A DNA stretch of 64,000 bases from a virus. Of this stretch, positions 14,044 to 52,192 are shown piece by piece. Where the stretch lies: the IMG/VR virus record IMGVR_UViG_3300043470_000815; one strand, given 5' to 3'. How positions within the stretch are numbered: position 1 is the stretch's first letter; each line of letters starts with the position of its first letter. A model generated the notes under the pieces. It ran no database searches. It saw nothing but the letters and a program-made list of their open reading frames with translations, and was not told the DNA's origin. Both the position numbers and the translations under genes were made by a program.

Positions 14044-14238
14044 CTTATAATCGCTATCATCATCGGTTGATAGGTTTAATCTAGTTTTACATTTTGGGCA
14101 TTTGAACTCGTGTGGGAGTTCATCTTGTTTCCACCAAATATTTGTATCCGAAACGAATGAATCACAGTTGGGACAAACGAAATCAAATGTTCCCAAATCA
14201 CAACTGTAATCATCGCAATGTCTAATAAATTCTGCCAT
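14029..14238 (-). CDS. zinc-finger hypothetical protein
   Basis: CPNC...CPKC. Confidence 0.6.
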   Translation of the reverse strand: MAEFIRHCDDYSCDLGTFDFVCPNCDSFVSDTNIWWKQDELPHEFKCPKCKTRLNLSTDDDSDYKLTIC

Positions 14239-39414: not shown

Positions 39415-40104
39415 TTATTTTAAATTTTTATTTACTAAAACAATTTTATCGGGATCATCAACTATTCCAAGTTTTAAAGTTTTTGCCGAATCCCTAAATT
39501 GTTGGGGTGGTGTTTTGAACCATGAATCATTGGTTGAAAAATAAAATGGTTTATCTTTAGTACTCATATATTTTTCTAATTTTTCCGATGGTTTAACAGT
39601 CCACATATAAACTGGACGACTGCCATGAAAATATCCATATATATGTATAGTATCCTTGGATGGTGGTTGACCATGTGTACTTACATTATGCGTAGGTGTG
39701 ACATAATCATTACCTTCCACCGCGTTTATTTTATTCATTTTTTCGATAAAATATGCGTCATGTACAACCCGCCACTTACCATCTAAATATGGTTTTATTC
39801 GACGTGCAACAATATTTGCCTGAACATAATGAATTGTTTCATGGAACACCACTGGTCTTAAAAATTTATCATCATCTACAAAATCTTTATTTATTTTTAA
39901 AACGGGATTAACAATATGACCAGTACGTGGTTGATATACAAACAATCCAGCCTTAGTTGGCATACTTGTAATTGAAAACTTAGGAATACCCCATTCTTGT
40001 ATATCAGAATAATATTCGGGAAAGTATTTTTGCATACATTCCTTGAAAAAATATTCTAATTTTGAAGTAGATGTAACTTCATTTAAGATTGTTTTTAATT
40101 TCAT
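39415..40104 (-). CDS. SprT-like zinc metalloprotease with MKLKTILNE leader
   Basis: VFHETIH...HDAYF; start reassigned to 40104. Confidence 0.75.
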   Translation of the reverse strand: MKLKTILNEVTSTSKLEYFFKECMQKYFPEYYSDIQEWGIPKFSITSMPTKAGLFVYQPRTGHIVNPVLKINKDFVDDDKFLRPVVFHETIHYVQANIVARRIKPYLDGKWRVVHDAYFIEKMNKINAVEGNDYVTPTHNVSTHGQPPSKDTIHIYGYFHGSRPVYMWTVKPSEKLEKYMSTKDKPFYFSTNDSWFKTPPQQFRDSAKTLKLGIVDDPDKIVLVNKNLK

Positions 40105-40105
40105 A

Positions 40106-40624
40106 TTACGAATAAATATTTGCATCATTTTCATCCCATGACCCATCATTTTTTACTGATTTGATTTGACTTGGATTAAACGTGACTACCCAATTTCCCC
40201 AAATAAAACCATCATAACCATTTTTTTCTAATAAATCACTAACATCCTCCCAAGGTACACCTTTGGCATCGGGAATAATTTCAAATATTTGTTCTTTTTT
40301 TTCCTTTGCCCATTCTACTGTACCATCCGAATTTGCTATATCACTTTTTATAATAAACGGATTTTTAACAGATAAATAAACTGATAATATTTTACTACCA
40401 TAAGTTTTTGCATCATTTTTATGTTCTGTGAAATAAAAACCTTTTGACAACCATCCCGATCTTTTTTTAGATATGTCAAATTTATCAAAATCTATATTAG
40501 TTCCATGATAATAAATCATTGGTTTACTACCATTGGTTACTTTACTATTCCCAAACCATTTTTTGAAATTAGCGTTTAAATTAGATTCACGCAAAACTTC
40601 ATTTAAGATTTTTTTTAATTTCAT
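40106..40624 (-). CDS. ADP-ribosyltransferase-fold (ART-PolyVal-like) protein with MKLKKILNE leader
   Basis: FKKWFGNSKV, YYHGT, GFYFT, YLSVKNP, YDG, FNPSQIKS. Confidence 0.7.
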   Translation of the reverse strand: MKLKKILNEVLRESNLNANFKKWFGNSKVTNGSKPMIYYHGTNIDFDKFDISKKRSGWLSKGFYFTEHKNDAKTYGSKILSVYLSVKNPFIIKSDIANSDGTVEWAKEKKEQIFEIIPDAKGVPWEDVSDLLEKNGYDGFIWGNWVVTFNPSQIKSVKNDGSWDENDANIYS

Positions 40625-46792: not shown

Positions 46793-46863
46793 TTAAATAG
46801 TGTTAATGTAATGTTAATCAGTATTAAAAATTAGGTAGAATAGGTTGGGTGGGTGTATCTTTG
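46793..46863 (+). promoter_or_regulatory. promoter TATCTTTG at the strand switch, with phased TTAA half-sites
   Basis: TATCTTTG at 46856-63; TTAA at 46793, 46803, 46814, 46824; TTAATGTAATGTTAA at 46803-17. Confidence 0.65.
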
Positions 46864-46905
46864 TACTGTTAATAAAAAACATTTCAAAATTAAAACTAAA
46901 ATATT

Positions 46906-47100
46906 ATGAACTATAACGAATTAGAACAAAAAGCAGACCTTGTTTGGTCAACATTAAATAGCATCGAAAACCAAGATAAATCAAAACGTGAACAAATGAA
47001 TTTGATTAAAACCATTTTACTTCAAATGGCAGAAGAACAACGCGAGGTTGGTAGAAATCAAATAAAAAACTTAATTTCAGAAACTATTAAAAATGTCTAA
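46906..47100 (+). CDS. hypothetical protein
   Basis: 64 aa ORF, first after the promoter. Confidence 0.6.
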   Translation: MNYNELEQKADLVWSTLNSIENQDKSKREQMNLIKTILLQMAEEQREVGRNQIKNLISETIKNV

Positions 47101-47179
47101 AAATCTATTAAAACTCGCCGCAATTATATTTGTGGCTGCATTCTTTATATTATTAACTTATAACGCAATTTTTGAATAA
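47093..47179 (+). CDS. small membrane protein (28 aa, not in ORF track)
   Basis: MSKNLLKLAAIIFVAAFFILLTYNAIFE. Confidence 0.45.
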   Translation: MSKNLLKLAAIIFVAAFFILLTYNAIFE

Positions 47180-47182
47180 CTT

Positions 47183-47401
47183 ATGAAACTTACAAAGGAA
47201 ATATTACTTAAACTTGGTTTTGATGAAAATGGTAAAATTTATACAAGATGGAAGTTAGACCTACATGAACATGAACAAGGAATTTTTTCTTTTCACGAAG
47301 GACGTATTTATTTTGATGTCGAAACTGTTGAAAAATTACATCAACTTTGGATAATGATTAACGCAGAAGATCAAATGCCATTACCAATAAACGAAATATA
47401 A
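47183..47401 (+). CDS. hypothetical protein
   Basis: LTKEILLKLGF...LHQLW motif. Confidence 0.6.
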   Translation: MKLTKEILLKLGFDENGKIYTRWKLDLHEHEQGIFSFHEGRIYFDVETVEKLHQLWIMINAEDQMPLPINEI

Positions 47402-47415
47402 ATTATTATAAAAAA

Positions 47416-47757
47416 ATGAATATTAAAATAAAATTAGAACAACGGGTTTACCGTAAAAGTCAAAAACCCGATCCACAGGATTTAATTAATAATATTATTT
47501 ATACATTTTGTAACAGGTCGGTTGGGGGAGTTTATCGGAACAATGATAATATGTATATGTTTCACTACGAAAAACACAATAAAAAAGTTATCAGTAGGAA
47601 ACGAACCAAAGACAAAACTGGTAAATATCCAAGTAAAACGGTTTCTATAATCGTTCCTGCCTACTGGAAGATCACAGTTACAATTATTCCACACGAAGTA
47701 TTGAAATTGATGAATAAAAAAGTCAAGCAGAATTTACGGAATTGGGAGTTCGTTTGA
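47416..47757 (+). CDS. hypothetical basic protein
   Basis: 113 aa, Lys-rich. Confidence 0.55.
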   Translation: MNIKIKLEQRVYRKSQKPDPQDLINNIIYTFCNRSVGGVYRNNDNMYMFHYEKHNKKVISRKRTKDKTGKYPSKTVSIIVPAYWKITVTIIPHEVLKLMNKKVKQNLRNWEFV

Positions 47758-47895
47758 TAAATCAAATGGACAGTTAATTTATTTAATTTATTAAATAAAC
47801 TTTTTAGTTCGTTTAATTTTAAAAATTAGGTAGGGTGGTTTACCAACCCAACGATTAAATATAATCATTCTATGGATAAATATTAATAATTAATG

Positions 47896-47946
47896 TTAAC
47901 ACAAAGTTAATAAATTAATTGTTTGGTGGGTAAGAATATACTTATA
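47896..47946 (+). promoter_or_regulatory. perfect TTAAC-N5-GTTAA palindrome with imperfect -7 box upstream of candidate ncRNA
   Basis: TTAACACAAAGTTAA at 47896-910; TACTTATA at 47939 (28 nt). Confidence 0.5.
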
Positions 47947-47949
47947 AGT

Positions 47950-48460
47950 AACCGTTGTTCCACAGCACAATACAGCGGACGGATGTTGACTACTTAATCC
48001 GTGAATCAAAAGGCTTGTTACATCATGGCTTTGAAAAATAAGAGGTTTTGTAACGTTGGATATAGTCAATTTAAAAAATATCCATTTTCCGTAGGGAACT
48101 AATAATTCCTGATAATCAAACATGCAATGCTTTCCAAATGTGGGCGGCGTTGCATTTATTGTTTTATTTTCCCTTTGGGTTAACAAAGGGTACAAGCCAC
48201 AATACCGTATTATATAGATCACTCTCGCACTGTTTCTAACGGGATAACAACGAGGACTGCATGTTTACTTAATGTTTCATTTATCTATATAATATGTTAA
48301 AACCGAATTATAGCAGGGCGGAACGTATTGTTGGTTGGTGGGTTAGATTTATATTCCATCTAACAACCTAGTGTATTTTACCTTAAAAGATTGATTATTC
48401 TTTCTTTTTTCTTAAATGGGTAAATATGCAGGGATAAATCCCGTATTATACCATATTTAA
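47950..48460 (+). ncRNA. candidate large structured non-coding RNA (unclassified)
   Basis: no plausible plus-strand ORF; eight or more stems plus long-range GGCTTGT/ACAAGCC pairing; strand inferred from the promoter and G-U pairs. Confidence 0.5.
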
Positions 48461-48463
48461 GTG

Positions 48464-48514
48464 TTAATTAGTTGTTAACAGACTTGTATAATACCAACCA
48501 ACCACCTATCTTTG
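48464..48514 (+). promoter_or_regulatory. promoter ACTTG-N20-TATCTTTG with TTAAT-N5-GTTAA palindrome
   Basis: palindrome at 48464-78, ACTTG at 48482-86, TATCTTTG at 48507-14. Confidence 0.75.
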
Positions 48515-48591
48515 TAATGTAAAATTAAAGGATCGAATATGAAATTCGATTTAATATTTTACTTTTTGTAATCAAAATCAATTATAAAGAT

Positions 48592-48885
48592 ATGACAAGT
48601 CAAGAAATTTGTTTAGAAACATTGAAACAGTTGGGTGGTAATAAGTTCATCGTTATGACTGGAGCAAAATGTATTAGTGATGGTAATACACTCATTGTAA
48701 AATTCAAAATGTGTCCAAAGGCGAATATTATGTACATCACATTGAACGGTAAAGATTTATACGACGTGAAAATATGTAAATTTCGCGGTATGGAAGTCAA
48801 AACCGTTGCCGAACTTAACGATGCGTATTCTGATATGTTACGCCCATTTTTCACCGAAACAACTGGATTATATACCAGTTTGTAA
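48592..48885 (+). CDS. hypothetical phage protein
   Basis: LKQLGGNKFIVMTGAK...Y.D.L...F...TGLYTSL motif. Confidence 0.7.
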   Translation: MTSQEICLETLKQLGGNKFIVMTGAKCISDGNTLIVKFKMCPKANIMYITLNGKDLYDVKICKFRGMEVKTVAELNDAYSDMLRPFFTETTGLYTSL

Positions 48886-48909
48886 TTAATTTAAAAATAT
48901 TAAAAATAA

Positions 48910-49173
48910 ATGAAGAAATTTACACAAGCACCCATTGGTTTGGGTTTTCATTGTTTAGAACACGAAACATCTATTGCGTACATTTGGAACGAATTAGTTG
49001 ATAAAAACCTCCCACCCAATTCTTTATGGGAATGTACGCCAATTCGATTACATAATATACAATGGGCAAAAGATGGTGTAACATTGTTAAGTATGGGAGC
49101 AGTTATTCGAGAAGGTGATATGTATAAACTGTCGGATTGGGCAATAGAAAAAATTAATAAATTTTTAGCATAA
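48910..49173 (+). CDS. hypothetical protein
   Basis: 87 aa ORF. Confidence 0.55.
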   Translation: MKKFTQAPIGLGFHCLEHETSIAYIWNELVDKNLPPNSLWECTPIRLHNIQWAKDGVTLLSMGAVIREGDMYKLSDWAIEKINKFLA

Positions 49174-49174
49174 T

Positions 49175-49486
49175 ATGAATTTTAAAAATTTCAAATTATA
49201 TAGATGGTTACTTGGGGGTGGTTGGTCACAAAAGTCCGATAAAACATGGGTTTGGTGGCCAATAATCGGTCAGGCAATTGCATACCAACAGGAAATCGAA
49301 AAGTTTCAACGCTTTGAAAAATATACTTGGTGGTTGAAAATAAAATATAAATTTTACAATCACAAACAAAAACGTGTATTTTGGAAAAAACAAGGTTATT
49401 TACCGCAATGTTGGACTGAAAATGAAGCACATTTATATACACCTGAATCGTTTGTACGTTTTGAACGACATTTTTTTGAATTATAA
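49175..49486 (+). CDS. hypothetical Trp-rich protein
   Basis: 103 aa ORF, coupled to neighbour. Confidence 0.55.
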   Translation: MNFKNFKLYRWLLGGGWSQKSDKTWVWWPIIGQAIAYQQEIEKFQRFEKYTWWLKIKYKFYNHKQKRVFWKKQGYLPQCWTENEAHLYTPESFVRFERHFFEL

Positions 49487-49914
49487 TGAAAAATAAAGAT
49501 ATTATCCGAAAAATAAATTATTTAGTTTACAATTCCCGATGTTCGCATTTGGGGAGGTGGGATTCTGATAAATTCTTTAATCCTGAATATTTAAAAACAT
49601 TTACTGATGATAAATTTCATGGCAGGTTAAATTTTAATTGTCACGAATTGTATGATTTATTCAAATTATCGGGAATGACACATAATGAATTTCGGGAAAT
49701 GGTGGAAGGAATTTCTTTAACCAAAAATGAAAATAAAAATTTATTAAAAGGTTCACCACCCAAGGAATCTCGTGACAATAAAACTGTTAGGGTCGGGAAT
49801 GGTCGAAACAAAAATCCAAACACAATTCGATTTCCAAAAAAGTGTAGGAAAACTGCTTGGAAACGATTTTATAAACTTTTTCCAAATTTAGAAAATGAAA
49901 AAAATATATCTTAA
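49486..49914 (+). CDS. hypothetical protein
   Basis: 142 aa; C-terminal IRFPKKCRKTAWKRFYKLFP. Confidence 0.6.
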   Translation: MKNKDIIRKINYLVYNSRCSHLGRWDSDKFFNPEYLKTFTDDKFHGRLNFNCHELYDLFKLSGMTHNEFREMVEGISLTKNENKNLLKGSPPKESRDNKTVRVGNGRNKNPNTIRFPKKCRKTAWKRFYKLFPNLENEKNIS

Positions 49915-50323
49915 TTACAGTTCCAAAGACCGCCATTTAGTCGATAAATGTATTCCACATCTAAAATCATTGGGTGAATTATGGTCAGTTGACAACTTAA
50001 ACGCTGGAGACATTATTGACAAAACAATCACAAAAAAATGGAACGAATCTGATTTTATATTGGAATTTATTTCAAGTGATTTTATAAATGAACCTTGCTT
50101 TAATATAGAGCCAAATAACAAATTATTAATTGGAATCTATCTTAGACCTTGTTCATTTGAAGACGTGGAAGGTAGGTGGGAATGTGTACTGCCATTTGAC
50201 GCGTTAAATTCAAGTACTGACTTTGATTCATCGTTGAATGAAATTATTAAGTATTTAAAAGATAATATCAATTCAATTGATACAGAGTTCCGATTAAAAA
50301 ATTACCTAAACGAAAATGTATAA
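49895..50323 (+). CDS. TIR domain protein (TIR_2-like)
   Basis: KIYLNYSSKD, W....LNAGD...I....ESDFIL.FISSDF...C..IE, I.I.LRPC. Confidence 0.8.
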   Translation: MKKIYLNYSSKDRHLVDKCIPHLKSLGELWSVDNLNAGDIIDKTITKKWNESDFILEFISSDFINEPCFNIEPNNKLLIGIYLRPCSFEDVEGRWECVLPFDALNSSTDFDSSLNEIIKYLKDNINSIDTEFRLKNYLNENV

Positions 50324-50807
50324 ATATTTAGCAATATTTTTATTATCAATTATCATTATATTTTACGATTATATATGTGTATTGATCTATAAAAAATCAC
50401 ATCATATTGCCATTGAAAATGCTATAAGAAAAATTGATAAACGGAATATTCAAATAAAATATATTTTCGATAAAAGTACATTAGTAGCAGCAACCAACCT
50501 AGTTGATAATAAACCATTTTATTATATCAATGTGACACAAGATTCGTTTTTAACAGCGGAATTAATCGCATACCATGAATATATGCACCAAAATATGTAT
50601 CCTAAAAAATATTCTAAACGTGTCGAAGAAGCAATTGTTGGGATTGGAACATATTATTATTCAATGGTCGAATATGATACAGCAATGCAACGACAATGTT
50701 TATTGGCATCTTATCCAGCGTTTGAAAAATTAACCAAAATCGAAAAAGATACAGTTTTAGCCTACAATTATTACAATTACACTCACACTTTTATTCAATC
50801 AAATTAA
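50316..50807 (+). CDS. membrane-anchored HExxH metallopeptidase-like protein
   Basis: N-terminal TM helix; IAYHEYMH...EE. Confidence 0.5.
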   Translation: MYKYLAIFLLSIIIIFYDYICVLIYKKSHHIAIENAIRKIDKRNIQIKYIFDKSTLVAATNLVDNKPFYYINVTQDSFLTAELIAYHEYMHQNMYPKKYSKRVEEAIVGIGTYYYSMVEYDTAMQRQCLLASYPAFEKLTKIEKDTVLAYNYYNYTHTFIQSN

Positions 50808-50817
50808 TTTAACAACA

Positions 50818-50934
50818 ATGATTTTAACCGCAATTATTATTTTCGGTGCATTAGCACTCGTTTGGTATTTATCACCAACCAACCCATCCAAACCAAATGA
50901 TGACTGGAATCACTATAACGACATGAACAACTAA
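50818..50934 (+). CDS. small membrane protein (38 aa, not in ORF track)
   Basis: MILTAIIIFGALALVWYLSPTNPSKPNDDW... Confidence 0.45.
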   Translation: MILTAIIIFGALALVWYLSPTNPSKPNDDWNHYNDMNN

Positions 50935-50961
50935 ACCAAAACTTAAAAATTTTAAAAAAAA

Positions 50962-51321
50962 ATGACAAAATTAACATTTAAAGAACTGGAAGAAATTATC
51001 AATTCGGATTTATTTGAAGAAAATGATTTATACCCACGTGCATGGATGCACGAAGAAGTGTATGAAAATGCCGATCAAATTGACGACAATCCTGAACTGT
51101 TTACCGAATATTCAAAATTGGGTAAATATGAAATGGTCGAACATCATGGCGGGATGGATGAAGGTAGTGATTATTACACGATTTACCATTTTATTGACCA
51201 TGATATTTACATTCAGTTCCAAGGTTGGTACGCAAGTCATCATGGATCAGAATACAATGAAATGTTTGAAGTTAAACCTTACGAAGAAGTTGTTACGAAA
51301 TATAAACAGGTTGGTGAATAA
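50962..51321 (+). CDS. hypothetical acidic protein
   Basis: GGMDEGSDYY...G.Y.SHHG...F.EVKP.E.VV..Y motif. Confidence 0.65.
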   Translation: MTKLTFKELEEIINSDLFEENDLYPRAWMHEEVYENADQIDDNPELFTEYSKLGKYEMVEHHGGMDEGSDYYTIYHFIDHDIYIQFQGWYASHHGSEYNEMFEVKPYEEVVTKYKQVGE

Positions 51322-51357
51322 TTAATAGGAATTTATCATTATAATGATAAGTTCTTG

Positions 51358-51408
51358 TTAACAGTTAGTTAATGGACTTGTGGGATAGGTTGGGAGGTCG
51401 TATCTTTG
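51358..51408 (+). promoter_or_regulatory. promoter ACTTG-N20-TATCTTTG with perfect TTAAC-N5-GTTAA palindrome
   Basis: palindrome at 51358-72, ACTTG at 51376-80, TATCTTTG at 51401-08. Confidence 0.78.
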
Positions 51409-51439
51409 TATCATTAATAAACAACTAAATAATTTAATT

Positions 51440-51955
51440 ATGATTTTTTTAAAAAATAAGTACGAAGATAATGGCGTTATATACGCTACTAACAATGAAA
51501 TTGAAACATTAAACGTTTCTGATTGTTACGATTCAAATGGTCAACAAATTGGTCACGATGATGCTGGTGATTATATCGAATTGACTGATGAATCACACGC
51601 CGATTTTGCAAATGAATTTACTGAAAGTAGTGAATACGTGGTTGGTGATTATGTCCATGCGTTCGATTCGTGGCAATTATTCAACGCTTTAAATGAAAAT
51701 TTTGAAGATGTTGTTGAACACACAACCTGCCAAGGTTTTAATGTGTGGGATGGACATAATTGGAAATCAATTATTGTTAATACCCAAATCGGTGAACCTG
51801 AATGGTCTATTGTGGATTTTGACGAAAATGAATTAGAAGATATGGAAGAAGTTCGTACTGGTAATGGTTTCACTGTTTATGAAACTGATAAGTACGAAAT
51901 CACATCTAGTCAATTTGTAGATGCTTGGGAAACATATTCAATAATTGAAAAATAA
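51440..51955 (+). CDS. hypothetical acidic protein
   Basis: 171 aa ORF after the promoter. Confidence 0.6.
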   Translation: MIFLKNKYEDNGVIYATNNEIETLNVSDCYDSNGQQIGHDDAGDYIELTDESHADFANEFTESSEYVVGDYVHAFDSWQLFNALNENFEDVVEHTTCQGFNVWDGHNWKSIIVNTQIGEPEWSIVDFDENELEDMEEVRTGNGFTVYETDKYEITSSQFVDAWETYSIIEK

Positions 51956-51970
51956 AATAAATAAAAAAAA

Positions 51971-52192
51971 ATGATATTAGTTAACACTGATGAAATGATG
52001 TACTTTAAGGATTTTGAATCTTTAAAAGATACATATCCCAATGCGTATAATGTACCTGACAAATACCCTTGCTATGGGTGGTTTATTTGTACAAATTATG
52101 ACGGTAATGGTATTGGACGACCAGTTCTAGGATATGTTTATCCCGAATCAAATTTTGATGGTATAACGATTAATAACGCTGTATTTTTGTAA
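51971..52192 (+). CDS. hypothetical protein
   Basis: 73 aa; NVPDKYPCYGW...NG..RPVLGYVY. Confidence 0.6.
   Translation: MILVNTDEMMYFKDFESLKDTYPNAYNVPDKYPCYGWFICTNYDGNGIGRPVLGYVYPESNFDGITINNAVFL

Follow-up and report, generated by a model that had tools for sequence, protein, structure and literature searches.

The viral DNA studied here, IMG/VR record IMGVR_UViG_3300043470_000815, comprises 64,000 nucleotides (the whole stretch is called the window below) and carries at 49895..50323 on the + strand a gene of 142 amino acids (aa) that almost certainly encodes a stand-alone, minimal TIR_2-type domain. The assignment is based on the open reading frame (ORF), which begins with ATG, spans exactly these coordinates and specifies a protein starting MKKIYLNYS, as well as on TIR homology, predicted fold and signs of purifying selection. 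Compared with cellular TIRs, the protein has kept the residues of the catalytic pocket and has lost a segment that takes part in assembly in a related enzyme, and we tentatively propose that it interferes with TIR-based defences of the host.

A Pfam scan of the protein returned TIR_2 (PF13676) as the sole match, with 23 bits and an E-value of 1.2e-4 over profile positions 1-71 of 122. This score lies below the TIR_2 gathering threshold (28 bits), because the match is interrupted by a deletion after E72, at which the alignment ends. An 80%-identical homolog (P0003) likewise has a weak precomputed TIR_2 match, and the PADLOC model for ThsB1 matched residues 1-75 (E 1e-7); searches of PHROGs and NCBIfam with the protein gave no match. 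A phmmer search of 1.84 billion representatives found 31 proteins at E<1e-3, with 7.4e-12 for the best distant match and alignments mostly covering query residues ~3-128 against ~140 target residues. Sixteen of the 18 scanned matches proved to be true TIR_2 proteins (39-243 bits), and in many of these relatives the TIR is joined to STAND NTPase, LRR-Roc-COR, TPR or kinase domains or is repeated in tandem arrays. Three phmmer matches (P0006, P0008 and P0011) were repeat proteins and were dismissed as spurious. Against the PDB, single-sequence phmmer produced chance-level matches only; a profile search succeeded instead, the profile being an alignment of the phage TIR with 16 cellular TIRs (A2), which matched Cat1, AbTir, BtTir and PdTIR at E-values from 4e-11 to 4e-5.

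The fold was predicted with AlphaFold2 (AF2) on a 20-sequence alignment, giving a model with a mean predicted local distance difference test score (pLDDT) of 78.4 and a predicted template modelling score (pTM) of 0.76. The model displays the flavodoxin-like TIR fold, with a parallel sheet (betaA-E) and helices alphaA-E, although beta-E is merely a bridge. The top Foldseek matches in the PDB were SPARTA TIR-APAZ, RPS4, BtTir, AbTir, BtpA and TLR1, all at probability 1.0, and VIA-align against the Hydra TRR-2, SPARTA and RPPT TIRs gave Z scores of 12.7-13.9 with a root mean square deviation (rmsd) of 2.5-2.9 A over 119-124 residues. Both the recognisable TIR_2 core claimed in an earlier, sequence-only reading of this DNA and the AlphaFold/Foldseek check suggested there were thus borne out, by phmmer homology and PADLOC ThsB1 in the one case and by the structural matches in both. 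It should be underlined that DNPH1 and deoxyribosyltransferases scored similarly against the model (Z 11.5-12.4), so that the fold alone cannot separate a TIR from DNPH1 or a nucleoside deoxyribosyltransferase; the sequence evidence does separate them, and since all of it points to TIR_2 these identities were rejected. A prediction of the protein as a 4-copy homo-oligomer (ipSAE 0.00, 0.36 and 0.00) weighs neither way.

The phage TIR was aligned by MAFFT with 77 TIRs extracted from named bacterial genomes. The residue E72 (codon GAG at 50108..50110, + strand) aligns with a position occupied by Glu in 76 of these 77 relatives, and the A2 profile sets the same column on the catalytic Glu of the 'WTNYE' motif of AbTir (E208), and likewise on that of BtTir and Cat1. 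The putative catalytic Glu (CFNIE) that the sequence-only reading had described as retained is therefore E72, and it is kept in every phage-family sequence covering that position. The residues Y8, S9, D12, G38, S60, F63, C68, R84 and C86, which are invariant or nearly so in the 77 relatives, are also all kept. G38, which is Gly in 76/77 relatives and invariant in A2 and in the subfamily alignment A4, belongs to the BB-loop region (D33-D39, DNLNAGD; 49991..50011, + strand), and this stretch is unchanged throughout the phage family. In AbTir the counterpart of G38, G174, is essential for NADase activity.

The immediate surroundings of E72 differ from those in the relatives. Immediately after the Glu, 61 of the 77 have Met whereas the window protein has Pro (P73), and the residue at -5 is Tyr in 72/77 but Pro, Phe or Ser in the phage family. 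By spacing, the residue at -4 is C68 (Cys in 68/77 relatives), with F69 at -3, while HMMER aligns W204 of AbTir with the -5 column and not with -4, leaving an alignment ambiguity of one residue. An aromatic residue is present at -4 from the Glu in every TIR tested that makes a cyclic ADP-ribose (cADPR) isomer, and in tested TIRs a non-aromatic residue there goes with non-cyclic products. The Cys at -4 would accordingly speak against production of an ADP-ribose (ADPR) isomer by the phage protein, an argument weakened by the one-residue ambiguity at that position.

With regard to the segment following E72, the alignment gap and the DSSP assignment place a phage-specific 9-aa deletion, comprising the C-terminal part of alphaC and the CD loop, at residues P73-K76 (50111..50122, + strand). 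The spacing from E72 to I79 is 6 residues in the phage family, compared with 15 in 76 of the 77 relatives and 17 in the remaining one. The gap is also visible in A2, and in the profile alignment the Glu is separated from beta-D by 3 residues in the phage TIR and by 13 in AbTir; the helix of about 10 aa less than in bacterial TIRs, noted on first inspection, is evident in both comparisons. In the AF2 model DSSP assigned just a one-turn helix at 67-70, followed by beta-D at 77-82. Together these comparisons point to a clean loss of nine residues, namely the remaining alphaC and the CD loop, that is specific to the phage lineage. A full-length alphaC and CD loop, as expected of a competent TIR NADase, is thus missing from the phage TIR. 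Smaller deletions in the phage protein amount to 5 aa at the alphaA/betaB junction (a length shared by AbTir), 1 aa before C68 and 2 aa before alphaE. In AbTir, alphaC refolds on assembly, taking in residues of the CC and CD loops, and the active site forms only within the assembly; the interstrand BCD interface is needed for NADase activity, with the R178A and Y207A variants inactive.

The phage TIR family consists of nine sequences of 78-100% identity, all on lake-metagenome contigs that reach 188 kb. Pairwise ratios of nonsynonymous to synonymous divergence (dN/dS) within the family are 0.08-0.30, with dS reaching 0.49, and therefore indicate purifying selection on the gene. Residues near E72 vary within the family (N70D, P73S, E66D, P67F/S); beta-D and residues 93-101 and 107-112 are invariant down to the overall identity of 78%. 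The ORF is intact in all contigs seen. One allele (P0036), present in two independent ~183.6-kb assemblies (L088:1501-1881 and L089:1501-1881), has a 51-nucleotide (nt) in-frame deletion between ATCT microhomologies, the rest of its ORF being intact. The deletion takes out NYSSKDRHLVDKCIPHL, that is, the conserved NYSxKD loop after strand A together with most of alphaA, and probably makes this a null allele, in which case the gene is dispensable in some settings.

As for cellular counterparts, tblastn confirmed 237 relatives in bacterial genomes, all at or below 37% identity, and the identity of the phage TIR to any cellular TIR is at most 40%. Among the phyla that contain these bacterial relatives are Cyanobacteriota, Pseudomonadota, Bacteroidota and Chloroflexota (Bacteroidota make up 8 of the 77 aligned), and stand-alone bacterial TIRs of 137-161 aa are common. 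In a quick maximum-likelihood tree that included the 77 cellular TIRs, a very long branch leads to the phage clade, which lies beside basal Bacteroidota rows with an unsupported attachment. The phylogeny against bacterial TIRs that had been called for earlier thus gave a placement near Bacteroidota that lacks support, and because of this no donor can be named. Either the TIR was acquired long ago or the gene is evolving fast. The source was probably a cellular effector-TIR family marked by 'SSDF..YCYxIE' and 'LRPC', and the recipient a lineage of large freshwater myoviruses that probably infects Bacteroidota. A motif-seeded search of 2.9 million IMG/VR contigs, based on alignments of the close family (A1) and of the subfamily (A4), yielded no confirmed relative, which fits the reported under-representation of TIRs in viruses (PMC9503650).

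The genome that harbours the gene is clearly that of a phage: proteins of the window match tail sheath, a T4 gp19-type tube, tape measure, DNA polymerase, RNR and DnaB helicase, in agreement with the phage context assumed at the outset. The window, with a GC content of ~31%, is part of a large myovirus-like phage known only from lake-water metagenomes, on contigs of ~174-188 kb, and the gene content, that of a large phage with a T4-like tail, suggests a lytic lifestyle. The 4-kb region around the TIR gene was found in 24 sequencing runs from many studies, all of them DNA metagenomes and mostly of lake water. Among 50,697 deposited phage genomes, no match was obtained by blastn with the 4-kb region or by tblastn with the TIR, and a canonical stand-alone TIR_2 protein (P0023) likewise found none by tblastn against deposited phage genomes.

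In an otherwise - strand genome, the TIR gene lies within a + strand block of ~12 small ORFs (46906-52192) that is bounded on one side by the tape-measure gene and on the other by the sheath module, both on the - strand. Nearly all genes of the block are orphans with respect to Pfam and PHROGs. As judged by the ORF coordinates, the TIR gene is the fifth member of a tightly packed unit of six genes (48592..50807, + strand), with successive gaps of 24, 1, -1, -20 and -8 nt. The gene order of the unit is syntenic in the related contigs L001-L007, L088 and L089, apart from insertions and deletions of whole genes. The 188-kb relative L001 has an extra 125-aa gene (L001:5652-6029) and an extra 224-aa gene (L001:6425-7099) directly flanking the TIR, the latter encoding a protein that is Cys-rich near its C-terminus; L088 has extra genes of 127 and 94 aa upstream of the TIR, and L007 lacks the gene downstream of it. 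These insertions and losses mark what appears to be a hyperplastic accessory region with cassette-like turnover.

The 142-aa gene directly upstream of the TIR (49486..49914, + strand, from the ORF list) overlaps the TIR start by 20 nt, and its product has no Pfam or PHROG match. This orphan is conserved in L001, L002, L007 and L088, with other genes intervening before the TIR in L001 and L088. The downstream gene (50316..50807, + strand) encodes a protein of 163 aa with an N-terminal transmembrane (TM) helix and a HEYMH motif, as seen from the ORF and the AF2 model; in the window, in L002-L006 and in L089 the two genes share 8 nt, the start of this one overlapping the TIR stop. The motif HEYMH...EE is invariant in this protein family. 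Although the AF2 model is poor (pLDDT 59), it has the order of sheet, HExxH helix and Glu helix typical of zincins, and the weak Foldseek matches (E>=0.035) are to the minigluzincins selecase and jannalysin and to the BlaR1 protease domain. Searches with this protein gave no Pfam or PHROG family and no Atlas match; from the model, it is possibly a minimal zincin peptidase. It is not an obligate partner of the TIR, being absent in L007 and separated from the TIR by the 224-aa gene in L001. A search for SLATT among the TIR neighbours gave no Pfam match at E<=1, and none of the island ORFs scanned with Pfam and PHROGs encodes a ThsA-type effector (SIR2/SLOG, Macro, TM) beside the TIR.

Ahead of the TIR unit, at 48463..48516 (+ strand), motif recurrence reveals a promoter-like element that reads GTTAA-N6-GTTAA, TTG, N20, TATCTTTG. 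The same composite architecture (GTTAA-N6-GTTAA, ~5 nt, TTG, ~20 nt, TATCTTTG) is found in three intergenic regions of the island, at 46802-46865, 48463-48516 and 51357-51410, all on the + strand. The exact 10-mer TATCTTTGTA occurs three times in the 64 kb, always on the + strand and always at these island elements. A matching architecture with TAnnTTTG at the same offset is present on the - strand at 660, 25269 and 36802, and weaker versions occur at 47895 (+) and at 14044, 35271 and 36468 (-). The downstream box of the composite elements reads TA(t/c)(c/a)TTTG and matches TAnnTTTG, the -7 consensus that Flavobacterium sigma-A recognises (PMC9723704). A regulator could bind to the tandem GTTAA boxes, which are spaced 11 bp apart. 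A scan of the island for sigma-70 promoters and terminators found no more sites than in shuffled sequences, and is uninformative in DNA as AT-rich as this.

The TAnnTTTG promoter motif was considered together with the translation signals. A core resembling the Shine-Dalgarno (SD) sequence precedes only 8 of the 53 genes of the window, and positions -20 to -1 upstream of the 53 gene starts are A-rich and G-poor, in agreement with the SD-independent initiation known from Bacteroidota (PMC6847099). Because of the promoter motif, the scarcity of SD cores and the GC content of ~31%, the host would seem to be a member of the Bacteroidota. Since a host-type promoter-like element precedes the TIR unit, the unit 48592-50807 is expected to be transcribed early, by the host RNA polymerase. 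The early island proposed in the sequence-only reading hence receives indirect support, from the + strand block of small genes and the Bacteroidota sigma-A-like element, while the timing itself we infer.

Taken together, the reading that we favour, at a probability of about 0.4, is that the TIR acts as a poison or capping subunit of host TIR-based defences and is transcribed early by the host RNA polymerase. After such early transcription the protein would meet host ThsB, TIR-STAND/NLR-like, TIR-SAVED, TIR-STING or SPARTA-type systems, all of which are activated only once their TIR domains stack in two-stranded assemblies. The phage TIR retains the elements of the head-to-tail contact, namely the G38-containing BB loop and the betaE/alphaE region, but lacks the C-terminal alphaC and the CD loop, which make the side-by-side (interstrand) contact of AbTir-type assemblies. 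It could thereby dock on a growing host TIR assembly and block its maturation to an active NADase or signal synthase; docking without maturation is proposed because the head-to-tail elements are kept and the interstrand elements lost. Binding to host TIRs, and their inhibition, we infer from this pattern.

Several observations argue for a poison subunit. The segment missing only in the phage lineage is of strictly conserved length in the cellular enzymes, and it corresponds to the interstrand-interface region of AbTir, which fits a decoy but is no proof of one. Within the phage family, the BB-loop stretch DNLNAGD, beta-D and residues 93-101 and 107-112 have stayed invariant. The unit contains no sensor or effector domain and neither a ThsA-like nor any other known partner, so that it does not constitute a self-contained defence system. 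Turnover of the accessory island, along with an allele resembling a knockout, is a pattern typical of counter-defence genes, and the gene lies behind a promoter-like element of host type. Moreover, Bacteroidota, the phylum to which the host would belong, also have TIRs of this subfamily.

Other points weigh against such a role. All family-invariant pocket residues including E72 have been kept despite the very long branch, and a pure decoy should need no catalytic Glu. TIR-TIR interactions are usually weak and specific, and none of the cellular TIRs resembles the phage protein so closely that mimicry of one specific host protein is suggested. No phage TIR decoy or inhibitor was found described in the literature searched.

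A serious contender, which we nevertheless hold to be somewhat doubtful, is that the protein is an active N-glycohydrolase, with E72 catalysing either non-cyclising hydrolysis of NAD+ to ADPR in the course of host takeover or the erasure of cADPR, N7-cADPR or His-ADPR signals. The retained pocket is the strength of this explanation: its residues stand at invariant or nearly invariant positions although overall identity is ~25-37%, the Glu has no known structural role and yet survives on a long branch, and dN/dS is 0.08-0.30. The nearest relatives serve as effector TIRs in STAND, LRR-Roc-COR and kinase proteins, the NADases Cat1, AbTir and BtTir are matched by the profile, and a Cys instead of an aromatic residue at -4 is what accompanies non-cyclic products in tested TIRs. 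What speaks against catalysis is the architecture, since E72 is now found where a one-turn helix ends, with Pro as the next residue, and the fixed-length alphaC/CD-loop segment is lost, whereas AbTir needs the interface built there for its activity. An unregulated early NADase would furthermore drain the cofactor of the phage's own ART-PolyVal protein (see below) and of phage replication, and Iyer et al. (PMC9503650) have argued that viruses gain little from enzymes whose ADPR products diffuse.

It is unlikely that the TIR and the membrane-anchored HExxH protein form an exclusion or abortive module that kills or arrests cells superinfected by competing phages. The idea would draw on TIRs of Firmicute phages that have a 2TM SLATT gene and, in some cases, one for a zincin-like peptidase as genomic neighbours, and for which a limitation of superinfection has been proposed (PMC9503650); it also agrees with the 8-nt overlap between the TIR stop and the start of the TM+HEYMH gene in the window, L002-L006 and L089, and with the fact that the weak fold matches of the HEYMH neighbour are all minimal zincins. 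However, the pairing is not obligate, as L007 has no HExxH gene and L001 has a 224-aa gene in between, and the model of the HExxH neighbour is poor. The scans found neither SLATT nor any other known effector, no sensor domain is present, and tblastn revealed no similarity to deposited phage TIRs.

Even less probable is a dispensable remnant, in which a captured TIR fragment without a current role is drifting towards loss. The P0036 lineage (L088, L089), with its 51-nt in-frame deletion of the NYSxKD loop and most of alphaA, and the gain and loss of whole genes in the island would agree with this, but dN/dS values of 0.08-0.30 at dS up to 0.49, an ORF intact in all contigs seen and invariant conserved blocks do not. 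The last possibility, to which we attach least weight and for which we know of no precedent in the form of a TIR-fold sponge, is an inert TIR pocket that sequesters an ADPR-derived signal or reports NAD+ status. The pocket residues are indeed retained, inactive members of the TIR/DrHyd/SLOG class bind nucleotides (PMC9503650) and sponges for TIR signals are widespread in phages, although those known differ in fold; a retained Glu would, however, tend to turn over the bound ligand, and the truncation takes away part of the pocket wall (alphaC).

Compared with characterised systems, the phage TIR is most closely related to the bacterial TIR_2 effector domains, i.e. the N-terminal TIRs of STAND/NLR-like, LRR-Roc-COR, TPR and kinase proteins, with which it is homologous over the whole domain at 25-40% identity. 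It shares with them the motifs Y-S-x-x-D, A/P-G-D, SSDF, C-x-x-x-E and LRPC as well as the catalytic Glu, and differs from them in being a stand-alone protein of 142 aa that lacks nine residues of alphaC/CD loop and ~8 more in three loops. The subunit of the AbTir-3AD filament matches the model with a TM score of 0.64 and an rmsd of 3.3 A; the AbTir residues W204 (cyclisation determinant), S176, R178 and Y207 (activity/interface) are replaced by C68, I40, D42 and I71, respectively, and the phage TIR has no coiled-coil or other accessory domain. Thoeris ThsB is likewise a TIR-only protein, but the ThsB1 model matches the N-terminal half alone, and unlike ThsB the present TIR is encoded by a phage and has no ThsA-type effector nearby. 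Another likeness is to virulence factors by which bacterial pathogens mimic TIRs, such as TcpB/BtpA and TcpC, in which the TIR of an invader resembles the immune TIRs of its host, BtpA being among the fold matches. Mimics of this type target animal TLR adaptors, and many have proved to be NADases; to our knowledge, no phage equivalent has been shown to act against bacterial TIR immunity. No homology to Tad1, Tad2 or other families of anti-Thoeris sponges was found, there being no PHROG match and only TIR models among the Pfam and PADLOC matches.

Virus-encoded TIRs are known but rare, so a phage-encoded TIR is not wholly new as a concept (PMC9503650). The TIRs of Firmicute phages, linked to SLATT, and of NCLDV described there resemble the present one in being virus-encoded and in possibly having a gene for a zincin-like peptidase alongside; here, in contrast to the Firmicute phages, there is no SLATT gene, and the carrier is a freshwater myovirus of ~187 kb instead of a small phage of Firmicutes. 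A truncation of alphaC is not described for the virus TIRs in that paper (PMC9503650). New are the lineage, a large freshwater myovirus probably infecting Bacteroidota, the removal of the alphaC/CD-loop element, which is specific to the phage and leaves the catalytic pocket in place, and the position behind a promoter-like element of host type.

TIR domains are a currency common to bacterial, plant and animal innate immunity. The phage countermeasures to TIR signalling that we know of are sponges, signal-degrading enzymes and pathways that rebuild NAD+, none of which is a TIR. A protein that has kept the catalytic pocket and lost an assembly surface is a natural experiment separating the requirements of catalysis from those of oligomerisation. 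If the protein inhibits host TIR systems, it would represent a new class of anti-defence, a compact off-switch for TIR assemblies. That it is the first phage TIR mimic to disarm bacterial TIR immunity from inside the assembly, by capping or poisoning filaments, is rather unlikely on present evidence; if true, it would be a prokaryotic counterpart of the viral death-fold and TIR decoys in animals. If the protein is instead an enzyme, it would be a TIR able to function although alphaC is nearly gone, and one would have to ask what NAD+/ADPR chemistry offers a virulent phage.

Some further features of the genome were observed. The island has an ORF-free gap of ~830 nt (47772-48591), which is associated with a GTTAA-N6-GTTAA box at 47895 and may hold a non-coding RNA; an Rfam scan of the island found no family in this gap and one chance-level snoRNA match elsewhere in the island. 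A 38-aa hydrophobic ORF at 50818-50934 (+ strand), called also in L002-L004, L088 and L089, carries a ACCAACCAACC repeat that is present in either orientation in the promoter-like elements. Among the tail/baseplate genes on the - strand, a weak match to a SprT-like metallopeptidase (E 2e-4) was found at 39415-40149, and an ART-PolyVal ADP-ribosyltransferase at 40106-40624 (Pfam E 9.5e-23), and counting the latter and the TIR, at least two proteins of the phage are related to NAD+.

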